DNA of 64,000 bases from an uncultured virus (IMG/VR IMGVR_UViG_3300004481_000138) (IMGVR_UViG_3300004481_000138), one strand, 5' to 3'; positions 8,306 to 63,655 are shown, counted from the stretch's first letter. The notes: generated by a model not told the origin, from the letters alone. A program made the numbers and translations.

Positions 8306-8749
8306 ATGAGGTATATTTATTATACATGGACACAATTAATGCAGGATTGTAATAGGATAGCAAACGAATTAAAGTTATTAAAAAAACATAAAATTAAATG
8401 GATTTATGGAGTTCCTCGTGGCGGATGTATATTTGCTGTAATACTTTCTCATAAGTTAAATGCAAAATATTTAACAAGTTTAAAAAAGAAACACATTCCT
8501 GAAAATACCTTGATAATTGATGATGTTGCTGACAGTGGGAGAACGTTAAAACGTATAATCAACCACAAAAATTATATATCAGCCACAGCATTTATTAAGT
8601 TAGACACAGATTTTATACCTAATATATATTGCCGCACAGTTTCAAATAAGGTATGGATTGATTATCCATATGAGATAAATGGAAACATTTGGAATACAAA
8701 TAGAGGATGGAAGCGAGCAACTTCCAGAGATAGTAAGAGAGCAAAATGA
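8306..8749 (+). CDS. Type I phosphoribosyltransferase (xanthine/guanine PRT-like)
   Basis: GVPRGG, PRPP-binding LIIDDVADSGRTL, WIDYPYE. Confidence 0.85.
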   Translation: MRYIYYTWTQLMQDCNRIANELKLLKKHKIKWIYGVPRGGCIFAVILSHKLNAKYLTSLKKKHIPENTLIIDDVADSGRTLKRIINHKNYISATAFIKLDTDFIPNIYCRTVSNKVWIDYPYEINGNIWNTNRGWKRATSRDSKRAK

Positions 8750-24700: not shown

Positions 24701-27700
24701 TGAACGATAGTTATACAATAACATTTCCATATCCAAATAATGCATATACAAATAATAATACATTAACATATGGTTTTACAACAGTAGACCCATATTATAA
24801 TTATACCATCTATAATGTGACAAATTTGATACCTGGCGGTATATTATCTAATGCTTATTTTTGCTATCAAGAATCAACTAATACACCAAATCAAACTGGA
24901 ATAGACGGTGGGTGTGGACTAAATTATACAGGGAACTATTATGCCTCTACAGGATGGTATCTTAGTCAATATCCTAATTTATATGATGGTAATTGGGGTA
25001 CAAGTTCTGGTAGTATTGGTAGTGGTTCAGCATATATTATAATCAATTATACTAAACCTATTTATGCTATAAATACTTCTTTATGGCGGGCAAGTGATGG
25101 GCACGGTCCTCCTGTAAATCGTTCCATACCAAACATTTGCTGGAATGCATTTTCTAATAAAATTTCTTTTAAGATGGTTTCAGATGCAGGTACTTTAGGT
25201 GGTGGTGACGAATGGATTTATTATTATTGTTATAATAGTACTGATTATCAATTAATAGATAGTTATAATTCACCAAGTGCAGCTCAAATTTATGAGGAAG
25301 CAATGTTGTGGAATATGTCGTTAAGTATGATTAATGTGATAACTAATGCAACAAGTTATACAGTAAATTTATTAGACGGTAAATACTATTATGGATTAAC
25401 TATTTATGATAAGGCAGGAAACAATTATTTTTATGACCCTAATATTACTATTGATACTACTCCTCCAATTATTTCATTTGTGTATCCAACACCAAATAAT
25501 ACACAAGTTTTATACTTGCAGGATTATATAAATGTTTCAATGTTGGTTAGCGATGCAAACAATATTACAAATCTGTCCATAATGCTTTATAAAGACGGGG
25601 TGTTATTACAGTCATATATATGGTATAATTTTACAACATCAACACAAAATTATACATTTATGAATTTAACCAAAGGAACATTTTATATAAATGCATCAGC
25701 TTATGATATAGTAAATAATTTAGGTAATAGTGAGACGAGACAGATTATATTGTTTGATTATGTTCCGTATGTGAATGATATTACAATACAGCCAACAGTA
25801 TTATATGGTAATACAACTATAGGTGGATATTGTAACATTACACACGATGATTTAACTCCTGTTAATGTAAGTTATGTATGGTATAATAATGGTATAAATG
25901 TACAGAGTGGTGTTGTAACAAATGTTTTACATAATATAAAAACTTTGATTAATAATTATACTTTATCATTAAGTGATTATGATAATAATATTATATTTGG
26001 CTGTCAACCGTTTGATGTTGACAGTACTGGCAATCAAACTAATACAACAAGCTATAGAGTGAATTATATACCAACATATAATATGTCATTATTTGGTGAT
26101 AACGGTAATAATGTAAGTTTCCCACAAATAGGAGATTATATAACATTGTATGGAGCTGTTACATCATATGATGCTGTTAGTCAGTGTTCATTATTTGTTA
26201 ATGATAATGGAACATATTGGAATTCAAGTTCACAAACAATAAGTAATGGATACGATTATTGTTATCAGGAATCTACAAATACATCTAATCAAGGTGGTGC
26301 AGATGGAAATTGTAGATTAGATTATAGTGGTAGTTATGTACATTCATATCCCGGTGGTCCTGCATTTGTTTATATTAACTATACTAAACCTATTGGTGTT
26401 ACAAATAATAGTAAATGGATAGTTAAAAATGGGGCATTATTAACGAATATTTCATTGCCAAATTCATGCTGGAATGCCTTTTCAAATAAGTTAAGTTTAA
26501 GATTGGAATCAGAACATCATCAAAATAATTTATTATCATATTCTAAGGCAAGTTGTTATAATGGTAGTTGGGTTGATTTAGTTAATTCCTCATCAATTTA
26601 TAGTAGTTATGGTGGTTCACCAACTTCTCCAGATGCCATTTATGATGGTGATTGGGATAGTGGTGTTGGATTTGTTACTTGTAATAGTTGTAGTCCTGGT
26701 GATTGGAGAAGTTGGATAGATATAAATCCATTAAATTCTGTTTTATATGAAGAGGCAATGAATTGGTATGCCCCAGTAATTATTCCAGGAAATGATTATA
26801 ATCTAACATATCTATTCCAAGTACGTCCAGTAAGTACAAACAATAGTAATGTAAGTTGGTATATACAATGTATGGATACTTATAGTACAACATTTGATTC
26901 AGGAATAAGACAATTTACCGTGTTTGATGTTACACACCCAGTAATTACTTTCCCATCAACGGGGACTAATTTTAATCTGTATACTAACACCTCAGTTATA
27001 AGTCATGATAGATATAATGTAACGTATAATATATCATATTTTGATTATAACTTGTTCGCAGCTGAGGTTATATTTACTTGTGATTTAAGTGGTATTATTT
27101 ATAATTGGTCATATATTGGGTTTAATGTTTCAAATTATACACAATATGATACATTTAGTATTGATAGTTATCCATTACAAAGATGCCAGTTTTATACAGG
27201 GGCAACAGATAGCCATACAAATGATGAAATTCCAAAATATCAGAATGCAAAGCTTGATACAGGCATAACATTTTTGACAGAGAATGATAATACTGTACAA
27301 GTTATTGCTAATGAGCAAAGTAATAATGTTCAAGATGTTACAACAAAGAAGATGAGAGATAGGCATACGTTTACTTTTGATTTTGTTGATAGCAAGAATA
27401 CTAGGACGTTCAGGCTGTTGTCAAATAATGTTATATATTATGTGGAAGATAGTATATATCCTGCACATTTTGTGATTTGGAATCCTGAGGAACATAAAGG
27501 TAATTGGATTGATTTTGCTGACGGTGTTAATGTTGGTGATACTTATAATGTAGAGAAAATTAATGATTATGAGTATCATGTTATAATAACAACATTAAAA
27601 CCAACAGATAAGCTATTATTTACATCAATTGGTGGAACACTATTAACTAATTATACATCATATTTTTATATTGGTGGTAGTATATATACAACAGGTGTTA

Positions 27701-29259
27701 ATACTTATAAAAATATAACATTTGGAAATTATTCATATATATTAACACAGAATACAGGATACCCAACAACTAGTACTTCAGGAACTACACTAACAGCAGA
27801 TTTGGTGATAGAAAATTTAACTAATGGTACATATACATATAATTTGAGTCATCCAAACTTTTTCCCAAATAATTTTGTGTTGAATATGACCAACGATAGT
27901 TTGTGGGTGAATTATACTACATCTCAGGCACAGGCTAACTTCCAATTCCAGGCATATTCAAGCGCTTTCTTATTATCTAATGTTACATATACGTTATATG
28001 ATAATTTACAAAATATAACAATAACAGGTAATACAGGGAATAGTACATTGGCAACATTTAATATTGATGCATCAAATTATACATTAAATTATAGTATTCC
28101 TGGATATTATAATGGAAGTTATTCATTTACAATATCTTATCAGCAGATTTATAATTATACTATTGATGTGAGTTATCCTGCTACATTCCAATTATATGAT
28201 GAGAAGACATTAGGAGAATTTAATATAAGCAGTGCAACCGTTGTTAATTTCTTGCTGTTTTGTCCTGGAAGTACATATTATACCGTAGTTAATAGTACCA
28301 ATTTTACTGTTCCTATAACGTGTGACTATCTATCATTTAAGTTTGAGCTTACTTATGGCACGAATAGTTATTATCGTTCATTCATACTTACACCAGATGA
28401 AACAAATAATGTGCCAATATATTTGATAGATGCTTCAAATACAGTATATATTTATAATAGTTTGGTAGCGGATGACCTATTAAAATCATATGTTAATCCT
28501 AGTATATATGTATATAAAAATATAGGTAACAGAACGGTACAAATAACAGCTAATTATGTTGATATAACACAAAAGGTTGGGGCATACTTAATTGCAAATA
28601 ATCAGTATACTGTGGTTATAAAGAGTGATAATAATCCAGATTATAGTGTTGGAATATATGCAGCGGATGCGTCAGGAACAGTAAGTATAAAATTATATTC
28701 AGTATCATTATATTATTCAGAACAAGGAGATAGGAATCCGGTGTTTTATAGTGCTAGGATAGATAATAGTACTGGTGACCATTTAGTTTTAGGAAGTTAT
28801 GTTGATACACAAAATCAGACTGCAAGTGTGCAGTTTAATGTGTATGCTGGAAATTCATTGATAGATTCTCAAGGAGTATTAAATACTAAAAATGCAGTAT
28901 TTACAAGTAATGTTTCAGCATATTATAATATTTCAACAATTTATGGTGAATTTATTATTACTAGAAATACAACCGGAACAATACAACAAAAATCAATATT
29001 ACATGAGGTTACTGAGATATCATTAGGAATACTTAATTATGTAAGTCAGGATACAATAAATTGGATATTGATAATATTGTTAGGAGTATTGGCAATAATA
29101 GCGACAATGCAAACAGCAAATTACGTTTCAATAGCACTAATATTCCTTGCATCATTATTTGTAATATTTGGATGGTTGACAATAAGTGCAAGTGTATTAG
29201 CAATTGCCGGATTTGTAGCGTTAATATCATTATTGAAAGAAGGTGAGCGTAACTCATGA
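18775..29259 (+). CDS. Giant (3494 aa) membrane-anchored adhesin/spike with LamG, DUF2341-like and Ig-like modules
   Basis: Signal peptide; LamG motifs (LIAYYPF..GYIDELGIWDRSL; MDEFAHYARELT); DVFEFFDDFEG; dense NxS/T sequons; C-terminal TM helices. Confidence 0.8.
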   Translation: MNKSIFLKKITLWAIIILILVVPVSAEYFKVENGLAFAQTASISTYQCMKIKINNQSVVLINVSRAAGAGGTQFVLKDASKNDILVSTWNIAENGTIGYTLLSETEYFLCDYNDGNSFTLKYNDTSSYPINTTFANWIGEMDDVNEGTAYSRQITAFTISDVPLGTLNCSILNQTAKVENGLEFTQTASISTYQCMKIKINNQSVALVNVSRAAGADGTQFVLKDSFKNNVYNATWGFVENGSLCYTLLSGQNYYLCDYNDGNSFTLKYNATSSYPINTTFANWIGEMDDVNEGTAYSRQITAFTIKHNISLPTPPFDTSAYNVTFPYADNAVTSNNNLTINFTTTDPYYNHTKYTLIDYQNTLENGLIAYYPFEETSGNAIDVKGVHNLTLTGTLETIPCIKGSCRNYTGNASNYFSTSSWNGLLNFSTGESFTFNVWANFQDNVSVYRVWGGGGQGTWGDEDNRQTFFGGGYNAGWAEGTRINYGSCVGTNCVESIPSANISGWRMYTITKNAAINASQILLYIDGVYYDTQESELEWDIFADEFFVGARRNLETGIVEPMVGYIDELGIWDRSLTTTELQELYDLSSVTNATNIDTVNTSYTFAELLDGRYYYGLTIYDDYDNSQFYDPNVTIDTTAPTINFTTGTTPNGSYIDGLRNIFINISYIEENPANITYYLYNTTGLYASIIESQYNDVVQYLSFDNLLTSSTGLYNATNTSGAWSYNNVTKKIGSSINMETSTASINLSDALFRPTSWTITFWFYPKTVATGTTTGVFWRRNDYASTWGPYWMTYYTASGIPRIQYVTEGHNAYSNSITSVGYGSISTGSWYYVTATYNNNTRKMKLYINAQEVTNFTKSGQPSYGSNNWTTDIGDPTTHSGTSANFMMDEFAHYARELTDEEIKTLYNGGTGKNYTQLPPIAGYHNFTNLPNGQYYYNATVTDLAGQSGSTPTWQADIVGNFTPGYYTVTAKYAPGTYTNDNDYYVIGNTTDIYFDHWSIVLNNLSYYECYQETANDSNVLDGECGLTYNGVYTGTGTGEASFYVNYTKPIKNINGVVWNIKAGVNATPNTYNIVLPEICTNQTIIQLLAIDISNNITTKCYNGINWQTLSSLGIATSSAGGGNTYYDARIDGDWNTCMANYVSSGNVWRNSPFPNGIFTLCEESIIWRLDNTNINVSNIRMAYYNLLDGIYYNNISATDKALSTYLWQNYFTIDTIYPTINYTTGTTPNGSYINGQGSIFINITINDTNVNYSIIRLYNASGTLINSTIGLSANYTNFSTGIYYYNATVTDLTGQSTSTPTYIAIIIDTFQLQYYNVTFQYENNSYSTNNSLAMMFTSTDPYYDYAEYEIRELSYGYTTPECYQQNSNDTNCGTTAGLYYIVYGALNSADNVNGINQIFVWYKPYGVNSNTRFETRIGLTANPVINWTIPKACLDYSPYNVTFAYTDNCGTSCGPRYLRCYAGTTGNAESGPWMLISAPQYTSSGGGNAVDPTNSTQRIFDNDYTTYLVPRYLGAPSIYWATVDDGGNVGNHRMYDNAMRWYGNTTKTVTVNKNMTFPNLANGRYYYSVRVYDKAGNSYLFDPYVTIDATPPNITYSQYTTLNGSYVGNSSNIYVDSIIFEENINTSIIRLYNSSSDLIDSVSSNSSYQTFILPYYFNDTSNSVWVKTNLVEGQTYYFTIKGGNVSKNSGDDVFEFFDDFEGPAYFSGAFDSSKWNNQYADLNSILGKINGTYIIGQSDNSLLRRKGINTTQTFGLGYATVFRAKDNIGQLYRDVIGFGGRLGSLGDHSSINVTGFNGLTSGPGYLSIQNSTGSVNYYYSNYTSNDVFHIYQVERFNNTLTKFYQDYGTLINGTVTDDAGNNSLSFMFASKVNNSIVTLDWVGVYKVDVDGPSIECSNNICKVIVTKNLSNYQLRIPLAPTSPDIDILVTTNNVVHNFTSLSTGRYYYNMTVTDLAGFTTNTPTYQADVVGPFMNDSYTITFPYPNNAYTNNNTLTYGFTTVDPYYNYTIYNVTNLIPGGILSNAYFCYQESTNTPNQTGIDGGCGLNYTGNYYASTGWYLSQYPNLYDGNWGTSSGSIGSGSAYIIINYTKPIYAINTSLWRASDGHGPPVNRSIPNICWNAFSNKISFKMVSDAGTLGGGDEWIYYYCYNSTDYQLIDSYNSPSAAQIYEEAMLWNMSLSMINVITNATSYTVNLLDGKYYYGLTIYDKAGNNYFYDPNITIDTTPPIISFVYPTPNNTQVLYLQDYINVSMLVSDANNITNLSIMLYKDGVLLQSYIWYNFTTSTQNYTFMNLTKGTFYINASAYDIVNNLGNSETRQIILFDYVPYVNDITIQPTVLYGNTTIGGYCNITHDDLTPVNVSYVWYNNGINVQSGVVTNVLHNIKTLINNYTLSLSDYDNNIIFGCQPFDVDSTGNQTNTTSYRVNYIPTYNMSLFGDNGNNVSFPQIGDYITLYGAVTSYDAVSQCSLFVNDNGTYWNSSSQTISNGYDYCYQESTNTSNQGGADGNCRLDYSGSYVHSYPGGPAFVYINYTKPIGVTNNSKWIVKNGALLTNISLPNSCWNAFSNKLSLRLESEHHQNNLLSYSKASCYNGSWVDLVNSSSIYSSYGGSPTSPDAIYDGDWDSGVGFVTCNSCSPGDWRSWIDINPLNSVLYEEAMNWYAPVIIPGNDYNLTYLFQVRPVSTNNSNVSWYIQCMDTYSTTFDSGIRQFTVFDVTHPVITFPSTGTNFNLYTNTSVISHDRYNVTYNISYFDYNLFAAEVIFTCDLSGIIYNWSYIGFNVSNYTQYDTFSIDSYPLQRCQFYTGATDSHTNDEIPKYQNAKLDTGITFLTENDNTVQVIANEQSNNVQDVTTKKMRDRHTFTFDFVDSKNTRTFRLLSNNVIYYVEDSIYPAHFVIWNPEEHKGNWIDFADGVNVGDTYNVEKINDYEYHVIITTLKPTDKLLFTSIGGTLLTNYTSYFYIGGSIYTTGVNTYKNITFGNYSYILTQNTGYPTTSTSGTTLTADLVIENLTNGTYTYNLSHPNFFPNNFVLNMTNDSLWVNYTTSQAQANFQFQAYSSAFLLSNVTYTLYDNLQNITITGNTGNSTLATFNIDASNYTLNYSIPGYYNGSYSFTISYQQIYNYTIDVSYPATFQLYDEKTLGEFNISSATVVNFLLFCPGSTYYTVVNSTNFTVPITCDYLSFKFELTYGTNSYYRSFILTPDETNNVPIYLIDASNTVYIYNSLVADDLLKSYVNPSIYVYKNIGNRTVQITANYVDITQKVGAYLIANNQYTVVIKSDNNPDYSVGIYAADASGTVSIKLYSVSLYYSEQGDRNPVFYSARIDNSTGDHLVLGSYVDTQNQTASVQFNVYAGNSLIDSQGVLNTKNAVFTSNVSAYYNISTIYGEFIITRNTTGTIQQKSILHEVTEISLGILNYVSQDTINWILIILLGVLAIIATMQTANYVSIALIFLASLFVIFGWLTISASVLAIAGFVALISLLKEGERNS
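18862..19691 (+). repeat. Tandem duplication (441-nt period) at the adhesin N-terminus
   Basis: 18862-19250 and 19303-19691 share long identical stretches (e.g. QTASISTYQCMKIKINNQSV, FANWIGEMDDVNEGTAYSRQITAFTI). Confidence 0.9.
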
Positions 29260-48237: not shown

Positions 48238-48324
48238 TCATATTCTTTTAATGAATATAGAAAATTCATAAACTTTATATATTATATAGTGTTTATTCTA
48301 TTAATGGTAAGTTTAAATAAGTAG

Positions 48325-49047
48325 GTGATGTATATGAAGATTGTTGAAGAGTTTAATTCTTTGCAGGGTGAAGGAAAATATTTAGGTGTACCAAGTTTCT
48401 TCGTTCGTACAACTGTGTGCAATCTTAGATGTGCATGGAAAAATAATGATTATACAATAACCATATGTGATAGTGCATATACTAGTTGGAATCCTGAGAA
48501 AGGTAAGGATGTTGATGGCAAACATATTTATGATAAAGTGAAAGGTACACAAACTAAGCATGTTGTAATCACGGGGGGTGAGCCAACCTTACAGCCTGAC
48601 CTGGCTGATGTGGTAACTTACCTAGTTGAGAATGGGTTGAGTGTAACAATTGAGACTAATGGTACAAAGTATGTTAAACTGCCAAAAAATACTTTTATTA
48701 GTATTTCACCAAAAACCAGTAATAGTTATGCTCAAGAAAAAGGTAGTATTGAGGAAAAAATGCATAAGAAGAATAATGTTTTTATTGATGCTATTAGGCA
48801 ATGGATTGAGAACAATGATTATCAATTAAAGTTTGTTTATAATAGTTTGAGTGATATTAAAGAAATTGAGTATATACAAACAGAATTAAATGTTCCAAAT
48901 AATAAGATATATCTTATGCCTCAAGGTATTAATGTGTTGCAGTTTAAGGATAAACAGAAAGAGTTGTTTGATTTATGTATTAATAAAGGTTGGACTTATA
49001 CTCCTCGTTTACATATTGAGATTTTTGGGAATATTCGTGGCATATGA
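48325..49047 (+). CDS. queE: QueE-like radical SAM (7-carboxy-7-deazaguanine synthase family)
   Basis: SLQGEG, CNLRC..(insert)..CDS, VITGGEPTLQ, IETNGT, SISPK, LMPQG, PRLH. Confidence 0.85.
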   Translation: MMYMKIVEEFNSLQGEGKYLGVPSFFVRTTVCNLRCAWKNNDYTITICDSAYTSWNPEKGKDVDGKHIYDKVKGTQTKHVVITGGEPTLQPDLADVVTYLVENGLSVTIETNGTKYVKLPKNTFISISPKTSNSYAQEKGSIEEKMHKKNNVFIDAIRQWIENNDYQLKFVYNSLSDIKEIEYIQTELNVPNNKIYLMPQGINVLQFKDKQKELFDLCINKGWTYTPRLHIEIFGNIRGI

Positions 49048-53379: not shown

Positions 53380-55239
53380 TTATTGATTTAGTAAAAGATT
53401 AATAATTGTGTCTTTTTCTAGGCTTTGTGGGGATAAATCAATATCTGCCTCTGTCTTATCTTCTACTATTTTTGCTCCTGCCTGCACTAATAATTCATTC
53501 AAATTTATTGTATTTCTATAATAATCATACAGATAATTCTTACTATGAATAACATAATCACGTCCTGATGATGTAATGTTATTTCCGATATATGTTTCAG
53601 CAAAATAAAATTTGCTTCCTTCACTTGTTACAACTAATAATCCAAGTATTTTCTGTTTTTGATTGATTTTAGTATTAGTTAATGTTAAGATATTGTTTGG
53701 GTTGACTGTATAATTATGTTTGAAATCGTCTGGTTTTTCTTTTGCAACAATTATTTGGAATGGAACCTCAGTCTCTTCTTTATAGTTATAATAATTAAGA
53801 TTTATAATATATGATTTTTCTGTTTGTCTTTTTACATATAAAAATTCACTTGCACCATTAGGTTTTTGAGCATCAGTCATATCACCTGAAAATAATACTG
53901 ATGAATTACTATCTCTCCAATAACCGTCCCAACCAACTTTTCCATCCATATTAATCATTGAAAGGTCTAAGTCAATCCTATTGTGTTTTACATTCTCCCA
54001 ATGCACACCAACAATCATATCATTTGGTATTGTTATGTATGTTCCAGAAGGAAATACTCCTGTGAACTGTTTTTCTGTTGCTGGAAGCGCATAATTTATA
54101 TATTCAGGAATATATATCTTTTTACCTTTTACTTTCAAGTCTTTAACTATTGAGGCAATAACTATCTCATATATTTTTTTAGCATAAGATTGTTTGTCAA
54201 ATTCAAAGCTTGTAGCATAGCTTTTACCATTTCTTATTTTGTATAATATTGAGGATACTTCTCTTGTTCTGAATTTTAAAGCGTATGCTAATCTTATTTT
54301 TCTAAAGATATTAGCTTCATCTAATTCTTTTTGTAGTTCATTTTTGTTTATTCTTGTTATGTTTGCAGTTATATTATTTAAGTAGTCTTCTTTCATTGGT
54401 TTATGATTTTTTACTGCTAATTTTCTTATTTTATTAATTATTTGTGAAAGTTGTGGTTTCTTTTGCTTAAATGCTAAGAATAATGGTTTGTATCTGTAAA
54501 AAATTTCTGAAAGCTTTTCATATCCATATTTTTTGTCATATTTTATTAATAGTGAACCAATATATGCATGTTCTTTGTATTCTTTTATATCATTAATTAT
54601 TTTTTTATTCTTAATAATCAATGTTTTCTTTGTTGATGTATATACTAATAAGCGTAAGAACTCTATCGGATTCTCTGGTATTATATGCAGTTTACTACCT
54701 AATATTATCTTGACCTCCTTATTTTTTATGCTGTCAATCTTGTCTAATTCAACTAATTTAGCTACTTCTACCACGTCATTTATTGTTTCTTCACTCAATG
54801 CAATGCCTGTTTCAAGTAATGCCAATAGTTTTTCTTTCAATTCTTTTTTTGTGTATCCTTTAATAACTATTAGTTCAATATCATTTTTTATGGCATCAAG
54901 TTTTTCAGCTGGGATAAATACTGTATCTTTACTGTATGCATCAACAGATTCTAATCCATATGTTGTGAAATAGTGTATGATTTGCTCTAAGAATAATTGT
55001 TCTATACTACTATTAGCAACTTTTTTCCATGACTTATGGAACGAGTTATTCAATTGTTCTGAGGAACTTCCTAAATCTTTAGCAATCTTTATTAATTCGT
55101 TCTCTTCATAATTGTATATGACTTGTGGTGAGAATACTATGCCATATTTAATAGTTTCTTTTAGAAGATTTTTTGATGGTTGTTTAGTCTTTTTTGACGA
55201 TATTTCTAGTGCTTTGAATAGTTTTATTGTTGCATTCAT
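53380..55239 (-). CDS. Large helical protein with C-terminal TerD-like domain
   Basis: N-terminal FHKSW..EQIIHYFTTYG; C-terminal HW..RIDLDLS..GWDG..FSGDMTDA..GASEF, the TerD-like signature. Confidence 0.6.
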   Translation of the reverse strand: MNATIKLFKALEISSKKTKQPSKNLLKETIKYGIVFSPQVIYNYEENELIKIAKDLGSSSEQLNNSFHKSWKKVANSSIEQLFLEQIIHYFTTYGLESVDAYSKDTVFIPAEKLDAIKNDIELIVIKGYTKKELKEKLLALLETGIALSEETINDVVEVAKLVELDKIDSIKNKEVKIILGSKLHIIPENPIEFLRLLVYTSTKKTLIIKNKKIINDIKEYKEHAYIGSLLIKYDKKYGYEKLSEIFYRYKPLFLAFKQKKPQLSQIINKIRKLAVKNHKPMKEDYLNNITANITRINKNELQKELDEANIFRKIRLAYALKFRTREVSSILYKIRNGKSYATSFEFDKQSYAKKIYEIVIASIVKDLKVKGKKIYIPEYINYALPATEKQFTGVFPSGTYITIPNDMIVGVHWENVKHNRIDLDLSMINMDGKVGWDGYWRDSNSSVLFSGDMTDAQKPNGASEFLYVKRQTEKSYIINLNYYNYKEETEVPFQIIVAKEKPDDFKHNYTVNPNNILTLTNTKINQKQKILGLLVVTSEGSKFYFAETYIGNNITSSGRDYVIHSKNYLYDYYRNTINLNELLVQAGAKIVEDKTEADIDLSPQSLEKDTIINLLLNQ

Positions 55240-55411: not shown

Positions 55412-55430
55412 ATATATAAAGTTTATGATT
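55412..55430 (-). promoter_or_regulatory. AATCATAAACTTTATATA promoter (BRE/TATA-like)
   Basis: Near-identical copies at 56191-56210 (-), 59395-59414 (-) and 48264-48282 (+). Confidence 0.65.
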
Positions 55431-55505: not shown

Positions 55506-55588
55506 TACCGGATGCAGGATTCGAACCTGCGGTAGCACTAAGCCATTGGGTCTAGACCAATGCTGGTTGACCTCTGCAGCAATCCGGT
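55506..55588 (-). tRNA. tRNA-Leu(TAG), C33
   Basis: Cloverleaf with long variable arm; loop TC-TAG-AC. Confidence 0.8.
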
Positions 55589-55591
55589 GTA

Positions 55592-55703
55592 TGCGAGGAG
55601 TAGGATTTGCACCCACGGTGTGAAACTTATTCAACCAGATATCTCAGCTAGTCTTGAGTTTAGCCCTTAAGTCTGGCCCCTTCGACTACTCGAGCATCCT
55701 CGC
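55592..55703 (-). tRNA. tRNA-Leu(TAA) with 25-nt BHB intron at 37/38
   Basis: CTTA/TGAG central helix, AGG and ATA bulges, GCTA/TAGC outer helix. Confidence 0.85.
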
Positions 55704-55707
55704 TTTA

Positions 55708-55797
55708 TGGAGCTGTGGGGAATTGAACCCCATGCATCCTCATCTCTTTACCATTATGGTATGCAAGTGAGGCGGTCTACCGATGGCCTACAGTCCC
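55708..55797 (-). tRNA. tRNA-Ala(TGC) with 18-nt intron
   Basis: G3:U70; CCTCA/TGAGG stem; relaxed BHB. Confidence 0.8.
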
Positions 55798-55798
55798 A

Positions 55799-55873
55799 TG
55801 GAGCCACCAGAGGGATTTGAACCCTCACCCAGCTGCTTACAGGGCAGTCGCACGACCGTCGTGCTGTGATGGC
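55799..55873 (-). tRNA. tRNA-Thr(TGT), C33, encoded CCA
   Basis: GCCATCA/TGGTGGC, U73; loop CC-TGT-AA; C8/G14. Confidence 0.75.
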
Positions 55874-55879
55874 GGTTGA

Positions 55880-55950
55880 TGGGGTTACCGTGATTTGCAC
55901 ACGGGCTGACGGTTCTGGAGACCGTTATGCTCCTGCTACATTACAACCCC
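55880..55950 (-). tRNA. tRNA-Trp(CCA)
   Basis: ACGGT-CTCCAGA-ACCGT. Confidence 0.8.
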
Positions 55951-56026
55951 TGGCGTAGCCAAAGAGACTTGCACTCTTACCCTCGTGCTTAACAGGCACG
56001 TGCTCCACTACTTGAGCTATGGCCAC
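55951..56026 (-). tRNA. tRNA-Asn(GTT), encoded CCA
   Basis: CGTGC-CTGTTAA-GCACG, G73. Confidence 0.85.
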
Positions 56027-56215
56027 AGAGTTTATTTAAGCCAGAAAATTCTGGTTTTTTTTTTGAAATGTTTGTTTTAGAATTTTAATGGCTTAAATAA
56101 AACATTTAGTTGGTGAGCGAACTACTCAATAATAGATTCGCCGTCCAATTACATGCTGTTATATATGCCATAGTATAATAAATCGATACTTATATATAAA
56201 GTTTATGATTTTTTA

Positions 56216-56725
56216 TTAGTCGTCGTCCACATCCTCATCTAAGTTTGTCATTAAAAATCTTATAAGTTGCCCAAGTAACTCTAGTGATATTTCTATGCTT
56301 ATTCCTTCCTCTTTAACCAATCTTTTTCTTAATTGCTTGTTCTGTTTTTTCATCACTTTCCAATTTATTTCTTCAATCTTATGTATTTTGTATGTTGCAC
56401 CCCAAAATGTTAATATATTCTTTCCTCTATGATAACCATTATGACAACTTTTGCATAATGTTATACAGTTTTTGATGCTGTCCTTACCATTATTTTTCTG
56501 GAATTTGACATGATGCATTGTTAATGGACTATTAGTATGTTTACAATCTTTATTAATGCATTTAAATCCGTCTCTTTGGAATACCAAGCATTTCAAGATA
56601 TATTTTTCATAAATCCTTATTTTTAGTTCATTATTTAGTTGTGTTAGGCTGTTTTCATCCCATGTGCTAAAATAACTACCTAAGTCCTTTATATTCCTGT
56701 ATATTTCATAATTTTCGTTTTTCAT
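56216..56725 (-). CDS. HNH endonuclease
   Basis: VFQRDGFKC..C..MHHV..NGKDSIKNCITLCKSCH. Confidence 0.8.
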   Translation of the reverse strand: MKNENYEIYRNIKDLGSYFSTWDENSLTQLNNELKIRIYEKYILKCLVFQRDGFKCINKDCKHTNSPLTMHHVKFQKNNGKDSIKNCITLCKSCHNGYHRGKNILTFWGATYKIHKIEEINWKVMKKQNKQLRKRLVKEEGISIEISLELLGQLIRFLMTNLDEDVDDD

Positions 56726-56732
56726 TTTTTAT

Positions 56733-57389
56733 TTACCTTGCTGGAACTTGTATTTTACTCAACCAATACTTTTCAGTATCAACATTCATAATGGCAAGTT
56801 TACCAAGCCAACCTACACCACAGTCCATCATTATAAGTTTTCCAAAACGTATTGGATTATTATATTGATAGGTTTGTGTGGTTGTATGGCCTACAAATAC
56901 ACGTTCATATTCTTTGATTTTTAATCCATTTCTACATCTTTCAATCAAGTCTCTATCCCATGTTAAAGTGTGCCTATCCTGTTTATCTATAGGAAATTTT
57001 GGATTATATCCGCCATGAACAAACAATCTATTGTTTTCTATATAGTAATACACACCGTTATTAAAAAAGTTTTGATGTGTAACTGGTATCATGTATTTAA
57101 ATTGAGCATAAGATTTTATTGTGTTTTTTCCACCTTGTGAAAGCCATATATCTTCACTCCAACCACTTTTCATATAATCCATAAACCATTCATCATGATT
57201 GCCCATTATAAATACTATATTTTTGATTTTAAGTAATTCTTCAACTACTTCATAAGTGTTATATCCACCATCAGTTACATCTCCTAATACTATAAGTTTG
57301 TCCTCATCATAGTTAAATTTACATAAACTTAAAACTTCTTTTAATGCTTCAATTCTTCCGTGGATGTCGCCAATCACAAATGTTGCCAT
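56733..57389 (-). CDS. Calcineurin-like metallophosphoesterase (PPP/ApaH-like)
   Basis: GDIHG, GDVTDGG, GNHD, VHGG, GHT motifs. Confidence 0.9.
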   Translation of the reverse strand: MATFVIGDIHGRIEALKEVLSLCKFNYDEDKLIVLGDVTDGGYNTYEVVEELLKIKNIVFIMGNHDEWFMDYMKSGWSEDIWLSQGGKNTIKSYAQFKYMIPVTHQNFFNNGVYYYIENNRLFVHGGYNPKFPIDKQDRHTLTWDRDLIERCRNGLKIKEYERVFVGHTTTQTYQYNNPIRFGKLIMMDCGVGWLGKLAIMNVDTEKYWLSKIQVPAR

Positions 57390-57393
57390 TGTA

Positions 57394-57465
57394 TGGGAAG
57401 ACAGGGAGTTGCACCCTGATGACTACGGCTTCAGCGTAGCGCATTCCTGGTTCTGCCATCTTCCC
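57394..57465 (-). tRNA. tRNA-Phe(GAA)
   Basis: CTACG-CTGAAGC-CGTAG. Confidence 0.8.
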
Positions 57466-57472
57466 TTGAGAG

Positions 57473-57545
57473 GTTAATAGTTGGGGGTTGAACCCAATCT
57501 TCTGGTGTCACAAACCAGTGTGCAAACCTTTACACCACTATTAAC
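57473..57545 (-). tRNA. tRNA-His(GTG) with encoded G-1:C73
   Basis: CTGGT-TTGTGAC-ACCAG. Confidence 0.85.
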
Positions 57546-57548
57546 ACA

Positions 57549-57622
57549 TGAGCTTGCTGGAATTTGAATCCAGACCCTCTCGTTCGTGGCGAGATATGAT
57601 ATCCTAATTTCACTACAAGCCC
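57549..57622 (-). tRNA. tRNA-Arg(ACG), A34 and C33
   Basis: TCTCG-CCACGAA-CGAGA; A20 present. Confidence 0.8.
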
Positions 57623-57628
57623 TTTAAA

Positions 57629-57703
57629 TGACCTTACTGGGAATTGAACCCAGGTTATTCCTGCTTAGAAGGCAGGTGCCATCATCCATTAGGCGATAAG
57701 GCC
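57629..57703 (-). tRNA. tRNA-Arg(TCT)
   Basis: CCTGC-CTTCTAA-GCAGG. Confidence 0.85.
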
Positions 57704-57708
57704 ATGTA

Positions 57709-57780
57709 TGGAAATACTGAGAGTTGAACTCAGTTTGCCTGCGTATCAGGCAGGTAGCCTAACCGTTAGCTGATATTTCC
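57709..57780 (-). tRNA. tRNA-Ile(GAT)
   Basis: CCTGC-CTGATAC-GCAGG. Confidence 0.85.
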
Positions 57781-57785
57781 ATATA

Positions 57786-57857
57786 TACAGGAACGGAGAA
57801 TTGAACTCCGATAACTGATGCATAAGACCAGCTCACTAACCATTGTGATATTCCTGT
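57786..57857 (-). tRNA. tRNA-Ile(TAT)
   Basis: CTGGT-CTTATGC-ATCAG; G37. Confidence 0.8.
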
Positions 57858-57861
57858 GTAA

Positions 57862-57933
57862 CGATGCCAACGGGATTTGCACCCGTGTCCAAGGATAGAC
57901 AGTCCAAGATGCTAACTTCTACACCATGGCATC
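57862..57933 (-). tRNA. tRNA-Asp(GTC), weak anticodon stem
   Basis: TTGGA-CTGTCTA-TCCTT (two U-U mismatches), G73. Confidence 0.7.
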
Positions 57934-57937
57934 ATAA

Positions 57938-58012
57938 TGGGGCACACGCGATTTGAACGCGCATTCTCTTGGTCCCAGGCCAAGGATGTTTACCAAGTTA
58001 CACTAATGCCCC
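57938..58012 (-). tRNA. tRNA-Pro(TGG), C33
   Basis: CTTGG-CCTGGGA-CCAAG. Confidence 0.8.
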
Positions 58013-58020
58013 TTTACTAA

Positions 58021-58095
58021 TGCTCCCAACGGAATTTGAATCCGTGTTTTCAGATTGAAAGTCTGATGTGATTATCCTGGCTACACCATGGGAGC
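58021..58095 (-). tRNA. tRNA-Glu(TTC)
   Basis: TCAGA-CTTTCAA-TCTGA. Confidence 0.85.
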
Positions 58096-58101
58096 ATTTG
58101 C

Positions 58102-58175
58102 AACGGTGTCAGTTCCAGACCTGACCGTGAACTTCCTTTCAGAAGTCCAGTTGGATTTGAACCAACGTCCCCGTC
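58102..58175 (-). ncRNA. Circularly permuted tRNA-like RNA (T arm, loop-closed acceptor stem, D arm)
   Basis: GACGG-GGAC-GTTGG TTCAAAT CCAAC-TGGACTTC-TGAAAG-GAAGTTCA-CG-GTCA GGTCTGGAAC TGAC-A-CCGTT. Confidence 0.7.
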
Positions 58176-58177
58176 TA

Positions 58178-58252
58178 TGCGGCTACCCAGATTTGAACTG
58201 GGACCGTCATCGGTGTAAACGATGTGCCATGTCCAGATTAGACCATAGCCGC
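58178..58252 (-). tRNA. tRNA-Val(TAC)
   Basis: CATCG-TTTACAC-CGATG. Confidence 0.85.
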
Positions 58253-58357
58253 TTATTTTAATGGCAATTCATTTATTATGCTGTTCTCAGGTAAGGGGTC
58301 TTGCCACCATTTATGTAGTTTAAGTCTGTCATACAATTCATTTATTGTTTCCATGGA

Positions 58358-58428
58358 TGCAGTTGCTGGGATTTGAACCCAAAACACCTCCTTGGTGGAG
58401 AGGTATGATACCATTTCACCACAACTGC
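58358..58428 (-). tRNA. tRNA-Gly(ACC), A34 and C33
   Basis: GCAGTTG/CAACTGC; CCTCT-CCACCAA-GGAGG. Confidence 0.75.
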
Positions 58429-58431
58429 GTA

Positions 58432-58502
58432 TGCGTCAGGCGAGAGTTGAACTCGCGCAGCCTGCTTGGAAGGCAGGAATGCTACCGTAACATTTCTGAC
58501 GC
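58432..58502 (-). tRNA. tRNA-Gly(TCC)
   Basis: CCTGC-CTTCCAA-GCAGG; A8/T14. Confidence 0.8.
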
Positions 58503-58507
58503 ATGAA

Positions 58508-58596
58508 TGCTCCTGGCCAGATTTGAACTGGCGTCTCAAAGTTTCTTCATTATTAATTCCAAAGCCTTGTATGCTTGGCCGCTACACCACAGGAGT
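58508..58596 (-). tRNA. tRNA-Gln(TTG) with 16-nt BHB intron
   Basis: CAAGG/CTTTG stem; CTTT/GAAG helix with GGA and AAA bulges. Confidence 0.8.
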
Positions 58597-58602
58597 ATAT
58601 AA

Positions 58603-58676
58603 TATCCCTGCCAAGATTTGAACTTGGGTTCTTCCGTTCCAGAGACGGATGACTTTAACCACTCGTCTACAGGGAT
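58603..58676 (-). tRNA. tRNA-Gln(CTG)
   Basis: TCCGT-CTCTGGA-ACGGA; A1-U72. Confidence 0.85.
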
Positions 58677-58679
58677 ATA

Positions 58680-58755
58680 TGGCGGGTCTGCACAGATTTT
58701 CACTGTGATTCTCCTGGGTAAGAGCCAGGTATGTTATTATTTACACCACAGACCC
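58680..58755 (-). tRNA. tRNA-Lys(CTT), encoded CCA
   Basis: CCTGG-CTCTTAC-CCAGG, G73. Confidence 0.8.
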
Positions 58756-58834
58756 TTCATGCCAACCTCCTCAGCACCCACAAGCATACAGAGGCAACCA
58801 GTTATTTCAAACCATGGGACGGTTTTAGCATGAA
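58756..58834 (-). ncRNA. Unassigned 79-nt structured spacer RNA
   Basis: Closing stem TTCATGCTAA/TTGGCATGAA exactly fills the gap between two tRNAs; inner hairpins AAACC/GGTTT and CCTC/GAGG. Confidence 0.5.
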
Positions 58835-58969
58835 CGGGTTTGCTGGGTATCGAACCCAGACCTCACTGCTAACTCCAGGATGTACTCACTCCCACATGGT
58901 TTTGCAGTTGTGTAGTCAACCTATCCATCCTTAAAAGGCAGGTGCGCTATGCCATTACGCCACAAACCC
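58835..58969 (-). tRNA. tRNA-Lys(TTT) with ~61-nt intron
   Basis: CT-TTT-A then intron closed by AGGATG/CATCCT; CTTT/GGAG helix and TTA bulge; G73. Confidence 0.75.
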
Positions 58970-59043
58970 TGGTCTGCTTGTTGGAAATCGAATCCAAATA
59001 TGACGGGCTACAGCCGTTTGCATTACCTTTATGCTACAAGCAG
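58970..59043 (-). tRNA. tRNA-Tyr(GTA), archaeal type, encoded CCA
   Basis: C1-G72, A73, short variable loop; loop CT-GTA-GC. Confidence 0.85.
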
Positions 59044-59048
59044 TTATA

Positions 59049-59123
59049 TAGAGATATCCGGATTTGAACCGGAACTCTTCGGCTCATGAGGCCGACGGTT
59101 TAACCAAATTAGCCTATATCTCT
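59049..59123 (-). tRNA. tRNA-Met(CAT)
   Basis: TCGGC-CTCATGA-GCCGA; A1-U72 (initiator-like) but without the three consecutive G-C anticodon pairs. Confidence 0.8.
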
Positions 59124-60528
59124 ATTTATGTATAGAATCTTTTTCTTGTTCCCATAAAGGGAAAGTATAAAAAATTTCTTAGAAAATTTCTCAAAATGGG
59201 AGCAATGAAAGATTTTATGATTGCCTGCCGACTATAAAGTATGCAGGCACAATTCGCTCTCCGTGTTCCATTTTGTCTATCATAAAGTGTGAATGTATTT
59301 TACCTCAAAAAAAATTCATCTGGCGACGTTGACCGTTTTCATTACAGGCATCACCAGGGGTCATTTATTAATTCTATTATAGTAAAACATTACTAATATT
59401 TAAAGTTTATGATTTTAATGATGGTTTAATCAAGTTTTTTGGTATCTTTAAGTCTAGTAAAACACCTGTTATTTTTACTTTCAAACCCATTTTTTCTAGC
59501 TCCTTCTTTATATCATGTGGAGTCCATGGATTATTTTTCGGAATAATTATATCAATAGTGCATTTCATTTTGTTTCAACTCTTTTATCAATTTCCTTCTA
59601 GGACTACAAATATGTGGCAGACTAAGTATATCTCTACCTACTATAAGACCACAATATGGACATTTTTCAATCATTTCACATCAGCCTCTTCTCCTTCAAA
59701 TTTTTCTCTTATATGTTTTACATACCCTTTGAGTTCTTGTCTTAACATTTCTTCAAGTGTTGCTTCTCTCCCATCCAGCCAACGATATGTTTTGGCATAT
59801 TCTTTCTTGATATGGCAGTGTGTGATTTTGTATTCTTCACCAAATCTTTGTCCAATAATAAATCCCAAAACCGCATCATCATTTGATGGAAGATGTTTAA
59901 AATTATGATTTATTAATGATGTGAAGAGAAAGCAACTGCTTCTCAAAGATAATAAAATAATGTCATCTTCTTTAAATATTATCTTTCTTCGAGTATCTTT
60001 CTCGTATTCTTTCTGGAGTTGTAAGAATTTATTGTAGATATCAGAATCCAATTCTTTAATATAGCTATTAATCATTTTGTGTCATTTCCTCTCTTTCACC
60101 TTACTCCTTATGCCCATATATTATCATACGCTCAATACCTGAAAGCTTCACAGCAACAAGTGTGTCTCTAATGGTATTTTTCACCTTAAGATATTGCTGA
60201 TATGCATTATTATACTCACGGGTACGCACATCAGGATTCTCGAAAACATTAGTTCTCACAGCATATACCTTTATCAACATCTTCAACGAATCCACAAGTA
60301 TTTCCATATCATCCATACACATCACCTTTTATATTATTATCCTGTTCGGACTTATTCGTTATTCTCGGGGTTGTTACCCCATTATCCGAACAGGATTGTT
60401 TATTTAATGGACAGTATATATTAAGACATTCTATATTATCACATTCAAACCCTTTAAAATTCAGGCATTGCCTGGCTATCTTAATAAGGTTGGGTCTATC
60501 TTCATCTATTGTTTTAGACATTTTTTCA

Positions 60529-62995: not shown

Positions 62996-63655
62996 TTACT
63001 GTTTTACACTTTCAGTATATGGAACACTATCCTCAACCCATTCATATCTTGTCTTATGTTGTTTGATATTAGGTATGGCCTGTAATATCTTACGTTTGTA
63101 GTTTCTCAAGCTAACACTGGTGATTCCAATAATTCTACAATATTCTTCCTCGGTCACCCTATAATCCTCAATCCTGTCAGCAAGATATGATATAGCTGCG
63201 GCAAGTGATGGTGAATTATCACCAACAACAACATCATGTTTCTTCAAATAATCCAATAAAAAATATGCTCTTGCATAGGATTCTGGCGGCGAATGAACCA
63301 CAGCTTGCACCATATCTATATATTTATCAACAGTTGTTGGCTGGAAATACCTGCCTATAACTTGTGAGATATGTCTTGATGTATTATAGATTATTGAACT
63401 GCCCTTGGCACCTTTTGTATCTAAATCAAGTATATCGTTCATTCTTGTTGGTGTCATAGGTTGATTCCATCTCCTGCATGCCAAATATATTATTGCAGAT
63501 GCATACCGTTCAATGGTTCTGCCACGCAGTTTCTCTTTAGATATATATCTATCAAGTATTTGTATTGCTTCATTCTCTATCTTTCTATCAAGTTTTAATG
63601 CTGAGCAATCTATACCTATCTCTCTCACTATATTATCATAGCTGTTAGTCCTCAT
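62996..63655 (-). CDS. tfb: Transcription factor B (cyclin-repeat core only)
   Basis: LRGRTIERYASAIIYLACRR; second repeat G..P.SLAAAISYLA..T..E....GITSVSLRN; no N-terminal Zn ribbon. Confidence 0.85.
   Translation of the reverse strand: MRTNSYDNIVREIGIDCSALKLDRKIENEAIQILDRYISKEKLRGRTIERYASAIIYLACRRWNQPMTPTRMNDILDLDTKGAKGSSIIYNTSRHISQVIGRYFQPTTVDKYIDMVQAVVHSPPESYARAYFLLDYLKKHDVVVGDNSPSLAAAISYLADRIEDYRVTEEEYCRIIGITSVSLRNYKRKILQAIPNIKQHKTRYEWVEDSVPYTESVKQ

Follow-up and report, generated by a model that had tools for sequence, protein, structure and literature searches.

The uridine at position 33 of tRNA (U33), the U-turn uridine, is among the most conserved nucleotides in biology, and textbooks treat the U-turn as essential. 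Natural C33 is known in cellular tRNAs as single exceptions, namely, the initiator tRNA-Met of multicellular eukaryotes (PMC8887486), yeast tRNA-Leu(GAG) (bioRxiv 10.64898/2026.02.20.707122), tRNA-Cys(GCA) of Sulfolobales (PMC7668247), and tRNA-Pro(GGG) (PMC11096365). The closest described system is that of the nuclease-insensitive tRNAs of bacterial phages, including those of cluster C1 mycobacteriophages facing VapC-type tRNases (PMC10264068) and the tRNA-Lys, tRNA-Thr, and tRNA-Asn of phage T5 facing the PARIS nuclease AriB (PMC12409363). No paper describing C33 in viral tRNAs was found in a literature search that did not extend to the supplements of PMC10264068, where phage anticodon loops are listed and which may be relevant. 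Here, we describe a tRNA array carried by an uncultured virus (IMG/VR IMGVR_UViG_3300004481_000138), of which a stretch of 64,000 nucleotides (nt), called the window below, was analyzed. Five of the 24 tRNAs in this array carry C33. The pattern is real, nonrandom, and mechanistically suggestive, and it is not unique.

The array consists of 24 tRNA genes on the minus strand (55506-59124), and the Rfam family RF00005 gave 24 matches over its gathering score. The preliminary description of this DNA had reported five C33 loops, and ARAGORN and the RF00005 covariance model (CM) were concordant for all five.

55506-55588, minus strand: tRNA-Leu(UAG), loop UCUAGAC, C33; CM alignment, 41.5 bits
55799-55873, minus strand: tRNA-Thr(UGU), loop CCUGUAA, C33, CCA encoded; CM, 47.9 bits
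57549-57622, minus strand: tRNA-Arg(ACG), loop CCACGAA, C33 and A34; CM, 51.4 bits
57938-58012, minus strand: tRNA-Pro(UGG), loop CCUGGGA, C33; CM, 49.8 bits
58358-58428, minus strand: tRNA-Gly(ACC), loop CCACCAA, C33 and A34; CM, 57.0 bits

In the CM alignments, C occupied the consensus U33 column with the top posterior probability in all five. Each of the five forms a full cloverleaf, and their scores (41.5 to 57 bits) are ordinary, all 24 tRNAs scoring 36 to 65 bits against a cut-off of 29. They also share the canonical UUC..A T-loop (U54-U55-C56, A58), from which six other tRNAs of the array deviate. Measured against a canonical elongator tRNA, the five genes have the cloverleaf score and the T-loop and lack U33. 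A tRNA-Gly(UCC) with U33 (58431-58503) adjoins tRNA-Gly(ACC). An assembly or sequencing error is scarcely credible as the source of C33, since the five separate sites fall on one structural position and independent assemblies contain identical loops (CCTGTAA in further Thr genes and CCTGGGA in the related loci L103/L151). The five look like intact tRNA genes, and their C33 like a variant that is maintained rather than mistaken.

Within the window, C33 was found in five of the eight tRNAs that read unsplit four-codon boxes (four-box tRNAs). As the preliminary description had stated, none of the 16 split-box tRNAs carries it (hypergeometric P = 56/42504 = 0.0013 for 24 tRNAs). No two tRNAs in the array resemble one another more than tRNA-Arg(ACG) and tRNA-Gly(ACC) do (76% identity). 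Because each is the closest relative of the other, they probably represent one event, and the box bias then has a P value of 0.004. The two tRNAs combining A34 with C33 are therefore present as reported and, being paralogues, do not stand as independent cases. Derivation of this pair from the C33 tRNA-Thr of the related loci L018/L024, with which it has a D-arm in common, was considered and rejected, since that D-arm pattern is shared by numerous tRNA-Trp and tRNA-Gln genes of phages with no such relationship. The exact 21-nt pattern of the tRNA-Arg(ACG) anticodon arm had no match in IMG/VR, and the window tRNA-Pro, used alone in blastn against cultured phages, had none either.

Codon usage was counted in 37 open reading frames (ORFs) comprising 15137 codons. 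The impression that CGT and GGT are frequent was borne out: CGT accounts for 105 of 139 CGN codons (76%), and GGT, with 439 of 1004 GGN codons, is the top Gly codon. ACA (673) is the top Thr codon and CCA (297) the top Pro codon, and the anticodons of the C33 tRNAs correspond to frequent codons of the element. Moreover, the sole tRNA in the array for Thr, for Pro, for Leu(CUN), and for Arg(CGN) is in each case a C33 gene. Both observations argue against the idea that the C33 genes stand outside normal decoding, whether as decaying pseudogenes or as tRNA-like decoys engaging a nuclease, synthetase, or modification enzyme of the host, and so do the cloverleaves, T-loops, and bit scores described above. 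What speaks for that idea is the presence in the array of at least two structured noncanonical stretches (58097-58177 and 58756-58834), the frequency of deviant T-loops, and the documented existence of anti-defense phage tRNAs (PMC12409363). We regard it as very unlikely.

The tRNA-Arg(ACG) and the very rare tRNA-Gly(ACC) genes encode A34, the gene-level feature of tRNAs in which A34 is converted to inosine (I34). Most simply, this pair would read CGU and GGU, both abundant codons, by Watson-Crick pairing. A Pfam search of the 92 window ORFs found no deaminase. This result leaves C-to-U editing, raised earlier as an alternative, unsupported; editing would restore U33 in the RNA, so that the genes only seem deviant. 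The editing of C to U at position 8 of tRNA in the archaeon Methanopyrus provides a precedent, and we know of no editing at position 33. Matches to a cytidine-deaminase-fold model (NF008113) were seen in two of three DPANN metagenome-assembled genomes (MAGs) and would favor editing; they are sub-threshold (52 to 56 bits against a cut-off of 150) and also occur in control archaea without TadA. In addition, an editing system would have no need of a restriction of C33 by codon box. Taken together, these points make editing highly improbable. For TadA, too, the DPANN MAGs gave sub-threshold matches only. Archaea are described as having no A34 tRNA genes (PMC7668247). Contrary to that statement, a 178-kb contig of a Pacearchaeota-labelled MAG (G003) encodes a well-formed A34 tRNA at L062:262-345, namely, tRNA-Leu(AAG) with loop UUAAGGA, which has tRNA-Arg(CCU) and tRNA-Gly(UCC) as neighbors.

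The array adjoins a gene for a 618-residue protein (53380-55236, minus strand), relatives of which were found in 39 metagenome, 58 IMG/VR, and 9 MAG loci. In many viral contigs, of archaeal and of bacterial type, this protein likewise adjoins tRNA arrays. It has no Pfam family and no PDB relative, and its match to the RING-domain family NF041916 is weak and partial (33 bits against a cut-off of 600). The MAGs with related loci are labelled Nanoarchaeota, Pacearchaeota, Woesearchaeota, Asgard groups, and two bacteria. tRNA-Tyr is short and window-like in L018 and L024 and long and bacterial-type in G006-G010. Position 33 was surveyed in 278 unique tRNAs from all related loci and the window, with five hand-read window tRNAs added; three sequences with fewer than four stem pairs or an odd anticodon were excluded. 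Two ARAGORN calls were reread, "Stop(tta)" of L024/L025 as Asn(GUU) with C33 and "Ser(tga)" of L088 as Ile(GAU) with U33, and the "Phe(aaa)" calls with G33 in L084, L097, and L098 and a Lys with A33 in L148 were regarded as doubtful. ARAGORN also placed a transfer-messenger RNA between tRNA genes of a related metagenome array (L021:11603-11991), which may be a false call.

With each unique tRNA counted as one row, C33 was present in 16 of 92 tRNAs for four-codon boxes, compared with 4 of 186 for split boxes (Fisher P = 1.1e-5). With the window excluded, the counts were 11 of 84 and 4 of 171 (P = 0.0012). The relatives thus do not have the random spread across tRNA types that the preliminary description had named as the outcome that would speak against it. 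Its statement that C33 falls only in four-codon boxes holds for the window and describes a strong tendency in relatives; it is not a rule, as four split-box exceptions occur among them. By the identity of nucleotide 34, C33 was found in 15 of 133 U34, 2 of 8 A34, 3 of 76 G34, and 0 of 61 C34 tRNAs, 58 of the last 61 being split-box. The bias persisted when tRNAs were stratified by the number of G or C nucleotides at positions 35 and 36: with one, 10 of 48 four-box and 2 of 85 split-box tRNAs had C33 (P = 6.6e-4), the remaining classes being four-box tRNAs with two (6 of 44) and split-box tRNAs with none (2 of 101). Therefore, box status and not pairing strength is the variable that matters.

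C33 recurs in particular isoacceptors. For Thr(UGU), the C33 loop CCUGUAA was present in five of nine unique genes (window, L018, L024/L025, L102/L153, and L103/L151), which fall into three lineages unrelated in sequence. The L018 and L024 tRNA-Thr genes are clear orthologues; every pair of the anticodon stem differs between them, by compensating changes, and the loop is identical. For Pro(UGG), 4 of 16 unique genes have C33 (window, L018, L045/L075, and L103/L151); the one in L103/L151, with loop CCTGGGA, has an anticodon arm identical to that of the window, and a C33 tRNA-Pro(UGG) of IMG/VR record G006 matches the 17-nt arm exactly. In two arrays, L151 and L082, C33 and U33 copies of tRNA-Pro(UGG) stand side by side. 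Elsewhere, C33 was found in Val(UAC) of L151 and L153 (two of nine unique genes), in Val(GAC) of L102/L153, and in Ser(UGA) of L130/L156.

These distributions bear on the closest rival to the explanation that we favor below, which is tolerated drift. Under drift, purifying selection on viral tRNAs would be weaker, and the change from U33 to C33, near-neutral in unsplit boxes since imprecise wobble would carry no cost in them, would accumulate and revert without advantage. Drift predicts the box bias equally well, and the alternation of C33 and U33 in Pro(UGG) between sister arrays fits it. So does yeast tRNA-Leu(GAG), which is about equal with C33 or U33 (bioRxiv 10.64898/2026.02.20.707122). 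Three observations speak instead for maintenance. The share of C33 in Thr(UGU), in three unrelated lineages, is higher than a neutral or mildly deleterious state should reach when genomes are AT-rich; the Thr loop was retained through complete turnover of its stem; and copies with the same anticodon and either C33 or U33 coexist in two arrays. The absence of C33 from C34 tRNAs also argues against drift, although nearly all of these are split-box. We consider drift a serious possibility, little less likely than the explanation favored below.

C33 was rare in the control sets. Two DPANN MAGs have dispersed tRNAs that are presumably chromosomal; C33 was seen in 0 of 28 in one MAG and in 1 of 36 in the other, the exception being Gln(UUG), and the 5 of 24 in the window differ from this combined 1 of 64 (P = 0.005). 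In these two MAGs, which may not be the host, the cognate tRNAs have U33 (Thr, CTTGTAT and CTTGTAC; Pro, TTTGGGA). A bacterial-phage control, composed of arrays gathered by a generic D-arm pattern, yielded 205 calls (168 unique) with one well-supported C33, which was the tRNA-Pro(UGG) of L082 beside its U33 counterpart. Bacillus phage PBC2, the only match of the L151 tRNA-Thr among cultured phages, has U33 in 19 of 19 tRNAs. C33 occurs in two Gln(UUG) genes of MAG loci, one with loop CCUUGGA at L159:7773-7847 (G004), on a 185-kb contig of a Nanoarchaeota-labelled MAG, and one with loop CCUUGAA at L073:9017-9092 (G005), in a 25-tRNA array binned with a Woesearchaeota MAG. From these sequences, some C33 may be of host origin.

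Other conserved positions also deviate in the window. The T-loop has G55 in place of the near-universal U55 in 6 of 24 tRNAs, all of them split-box and none with C33. The bearers are Leu(UAA), Trp, Asn, Phe, and Asp, with UGC, and Lys(CUU), with UGAAAAU.

55592-55703, 55880-55950, 55951-56026, 57394-57465, 57861-57934, and 58680-58755, minus strand: the six tRNAs with G55

G55 was found in 9 of 109 tRNAs of related arrays, 0 of 64 of the DPANN MAGs, and 1 of 205 of the bacterial-phage control, and this deviation at another universal position is a further point for drift. G37 in the Met and Ile(UAU) tRNAs and U37 in the Asp tRNA, both mentioned in the preliminary description, are present. G37 of tRNA-Met also occurs in the chromosomal tRNA-Met of two DPANN MAGs and is therefore not a viral oddity. 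U37 of tRNA-Asp(GUC) (loop CUGUCUA) was found in the window (57861-57934), in the related arrays L028 and L074, and in 5 of 11 Asp tRNAs of the bacterial-phage control (L077, L079, L082, L088, and L089); two DPANN MAGs have G37 at this position (CUGUCGC). U37 in tRNA-Asp is thus a second loop deviation that recurs in viral tRNAs and is tied to an isoacceptor.

The explanation that we favor, tentatively and with rather less than even confidence, is that C33 conceals these tRNAs from U33-dependent enzymes of the host and survives only where wobble discrimination is not needed. The array is probably transcribed from the element's own promoters. With C in place of the U-turn uridine, the anticodon loop would be a poor substrate for host enzymes that read U33, the candidates being the wobble-uridine modifier Elp3, the machinery for N6-threonylcarbamoyladenosine at position 37 (t6A37), and possibly defense nucleases that act on the anticodon loop. 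The cost would be a looser placing of base 34, which should be bearable only if the third codon base needs no discrimination. A cost bearable only in unsplit boxes would in turn explain why C33 is concentrated in ACN, CCN, CUN, CGN, and GGN and, in relatives, in GUN and UCN. The U34 tRNAs for Thr, Pro, and Leu would decode with a hypomodified U34, and plain A-U pairing would let the two A34 tRNAs read CGU and GGU, the preferred codons. A possible gain is escape from modification-dependent or U33-dependent tRNases.

The steps involving host enzymes draw on published work in other organisms, in which U33C blocks Elongator and t6A formation. Human Elongator loses tRNA-triggered acetyl-CoA hydrolysis with U33C, and a yeast suppressor tRNA loses 5-methoxycarbonylmethyluridine at position 34 (PMC11096365). 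C33 also blocks formation of t6A37 by Escherichia coli TsaBCDE and yeast KEOPS, including that on tRNA-Thr(UGU)-U33C (PMC8887486). A natural C33 elongator tRNA nonetheless works, since the four-box yeast tRNA-Leu(GAG) is about as functional as its U33 variant (bioRxiv 10.64898/2026.02.20.707122). Phage tRNAs with changes in the anticodon loop have been proposed to escape VapC-type tRNases (PMC10264068), and tRNA-Thr(UGU) is a main target of AriB (PMC12409363). The experiments with Elongator, TsaBCDE, and yeast KEOPS lend indirect support, from other systems, to the idea of a modification-independent or nuclease-escaping design, which was part of the preliminary description. An Elp3 gene scoring over the curated cut-off is present in two of the three DPANN MAGs that hold related loci. 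For concealment from U33-reading enzymes to operate here, the enzymes of the archaeal host, whichever it is, would have to behave like those studied, and the virus would have to benefit.

Several points weigh against this explanation. Human and nematode KEOPS tolerate C33 (PMC8887486), and by analogy archaeal KEOPS might tolerate it too. All five C33 loops of Thr(UGU) retain C32, A37, and A38, the remaining t6A determinants, which would fit continued modification. AriB cuts at 40/41, and U33 is not among the determinants reported for it (PMC12409363). The deviation at G55 suggests a generally relaxed constraint on near-universal positions. Among CTN codons, CTT (184) exceeds CTA (107), so that the exact match of tRNA-Leu(UAG) is not the top codon. 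Relatives include four split-box tRNAs with C33, namely, Cys(GCA) of L130/L156, Ile(UAU) and Asn(GUU) of L024, and Gln(UUG) of L073. The rows of the survey are not phylogenetically independent, and when collapsed by eye to lineages outside the window, they give about eight four-box events and four split-box events (binomial P = 0.017). Pro(UGG) flips between sister arrays, with C33 in L018 and U33 in L024 and with C33 in L151 and U33 in L153, a pattern equally compatible with drift and with an arms race. The pooled viral frequency of C33 (20 of 278) does not differ significantly from that in the DPANN MAGs (1 of 64; P = 0.14). Finally, assignment of a host by tRNA similarity was rejected, since the 61 to 75% identity of window tRNAs to those of the DPANN MAG G003 is generic.

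A bolder form of the proposal would treat C33 as a deliberate anti-determinant. It would make private four-box tRNAs that are neither modified nor cut by U33-requiring host enzymes and that use an unmodified U34 or A34 to decode whole boxes; among them would be the Arg(ACG)/Gly(ACC) pair, with A34 left unmodified in a domain described as lacking A34 tRNAs. The substitution would have arisen repeatedly in archaeal and bacterial viruses, and G55 and the U37 of tRNA-Asp would belong to the same enzyme-orthogonal strategy. We consider this form unlikely.

The window has archaeal hallmarks. Its GC content is 32%. Domain searches of the window ORFs identified an MCM-like P-loop protein, just over the cut-off (470-2668, minus strand), and a TFIIB-repeat protein (62996-63652, minus strand; E = 1e-15). 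A tyrosine integrase, HNH endonucleases, and a collagen-like tail-fiber protein (PHROGs match) are also encoded, and no capsid or terminase gene was identified among the window proteins. Archaeal replication and transcription genes therefore occur together with virus-like structural genes, and on this basis the element looks like an archaeal virus or a virus-like mobile element. The tRNA array had no blastn match in cultured phages, and the metallophosphatase and DUF6745 proteins of the window, used as probes of IMG/VR, found no relatives. Homology of the metallophosphatase to that of Bacillus phage PBC2 was rejected, the likeness being at the level of motifs only (E = 0.24). A single ORF of 3494 residues (18775-29256, plus strand) contains Laminin_G_3, DUF2341, Big_3_2, and PKD-like domains and is followed by the collagen-like and other large ORFs; to judge from their domains, these are probably adhesion or tail-fiber proteins. 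A QueE-like radical S-adenosylmethionine protein (48325-49044, plus strand), whose top NCBIfam matches are QueE models under their cut-offs, and a phosphoribosyltransferase (8306-8746, plus strand) hint at 7-deazaguanine metabolism.

An 18-nt TATA-like motif, ATCATAAACTTTATATAT, occurs in 10 copies in the window (up to 3 mismatches), compared with 1.2 expected, mostly directly upstream of genes.

59396-59413, minus strand: promoter-like motif copy, about 270 nt upstream of the first tRNA (Met)
56192-56209, minus strand: exact copy of the promoter-like motif, ahead of the second tRNA block
48265-48282, plus strand: promoter-like motif copy, one of the 10 sites
55412-55429, minus strand: promoter-like motif copy, one of the 10 sites

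The motif is probably the promoter of the element, with an archaeal-type TATA box. As each of the two tRNA blocks is preceded by a copy, the array is probably served by promoters of its own.

ARAGORN found 19 of the tRNAs with plain settings and 22 with introns allowed, and Leu(UAA), with an intron, and Trp(CCA) were added at a lowered threshold. Its two "Stop(tta)" calls were reassigned, from reading of the loops, as the intron-bearing tRNAs (introns at 37/38) for Gln(UUG) and Lys(UUU). The array yielded no tRNA for Ser or Cys.

59124-57394 and 56026-55506, minus strand: the two blocks of the array, divided by the HNH endonuclease and metallophosphatase genes
56216-56725, minus strand: HNH endonuclease gene within the array (Pfam PF01844, E = 5e-8)
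56733-57389, minus strand: calcineurin-like metallophosphatase gene within the array (Pfam PF00149, E = 1e-16; NCBIfam ApaH/PrpA-like, under the cut-off)
55592-55703, minus strand: tRNA-Leu(UAA), U33, 25-nt intron, T-loop UGCAAAU (G55)
55707-55798, minus strand: tRNA-Ala(UGC), four-box, U33, 18-nt intron
58507-58597, minus strand: tRNA-Gln(UUG), 16-nt intron at 37/38; loop CUUUGG, intron, A
58835-58969, minus strand: tRNA-Lys(UUU), intron of about 59 nt at 37/38; loop CUUUUA, intron, A

A short tRNA-Tyr is the form used by archaea and eukaryotes, and the type II tRNA-Tyr is the bacterial form. The window tRNA-Tyr is of the short type I (74 nt including CCA), and together with the four intron-bearing tRNAs, whose introns lie near 37/38, it marks the array as archaeal-type. 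Folding gave no demonstration of a bulge-helix-bulge at the tRNA introns. Two gaps in the array are structured. The 81 nt at 58097-58177 (minus strand) form three hairpins under a 5-bp closing stem (-27.9 kcal/mol), the first of which has loop UUCAAAU, with CAA as a possible anticodon; a 9-bp arm follows, and then a hairpin whose loop is 8 nt long. An Rfam search did not detect this stretch; its fold suggests that it may be a D-armless or decayed tRNA-Leu(CAA). The 79 nt at 58756-58834 (minus strand; 49% GC), between Lys(UUU) and Lys(CUU), have a closed two-hairpin fold (-24.9 kcal/mol) and matched no tRNA or Rfam family.

The array, taken with its relatives, is a natural series: particular isoacceptors retain C33, which scarcely occurs outside unsplit boxes. 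This offers a testable rule for the role of U33 in accurate wobble discrimination and in recognition by modification enzymes. If evasion is true, the escape of viral tRNAs from host tRNA-targeting enzymes would extend from bacteria to archaea, and a single base would provide a simple route to tRNAs invisible to host modification. If drift is true, the series is a map of where translation tolerates loss of the U-turn uridine.

Superwobble, or four-way decoding by unmodified U34 or A34, is known from mitochondria, plastids, and Mycoplasma. The window resembles these systems in having one tRNA per four-codon box, U34 or A34, no need for third-base discrimination, and an AT-rich genome. Unlike the window C33 tRNAs, superwobble tRNAs retain U33, and the unmodified state of the wobble base is here only inferred. 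Like the nuclease-insensitive phage tRNAs, the window tRNAs are virus-encoded, occur in a large array, and deviate from cellular tRNAs at conserved positions of the anticodon arm, and the isoacceptors affected, in the phages as in the window and its relatives, include Thr(UGU) and Asn(GUU). The described phage cases are bacterial, with changes at cleavage or recognition sites (e.g., 39, 41, and U16 for AriB), whereas the window element is archaeal-type; the main texts make no mention of position 33 (PMC10264068 and PMC12409363). The cellular C33 tRNAs likewise have C for the U-turn uridine in a working tRNA, and Leu(GAG) and Pro(GGG) are also four-box; the window tRNAs, judged by their sequences, are probably functional as well. 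In contrast to those single exceptions, C33 is found here in 5 of the 24 tRNAs of one viral array, two of them with A34, and it recurs across viral arrays.

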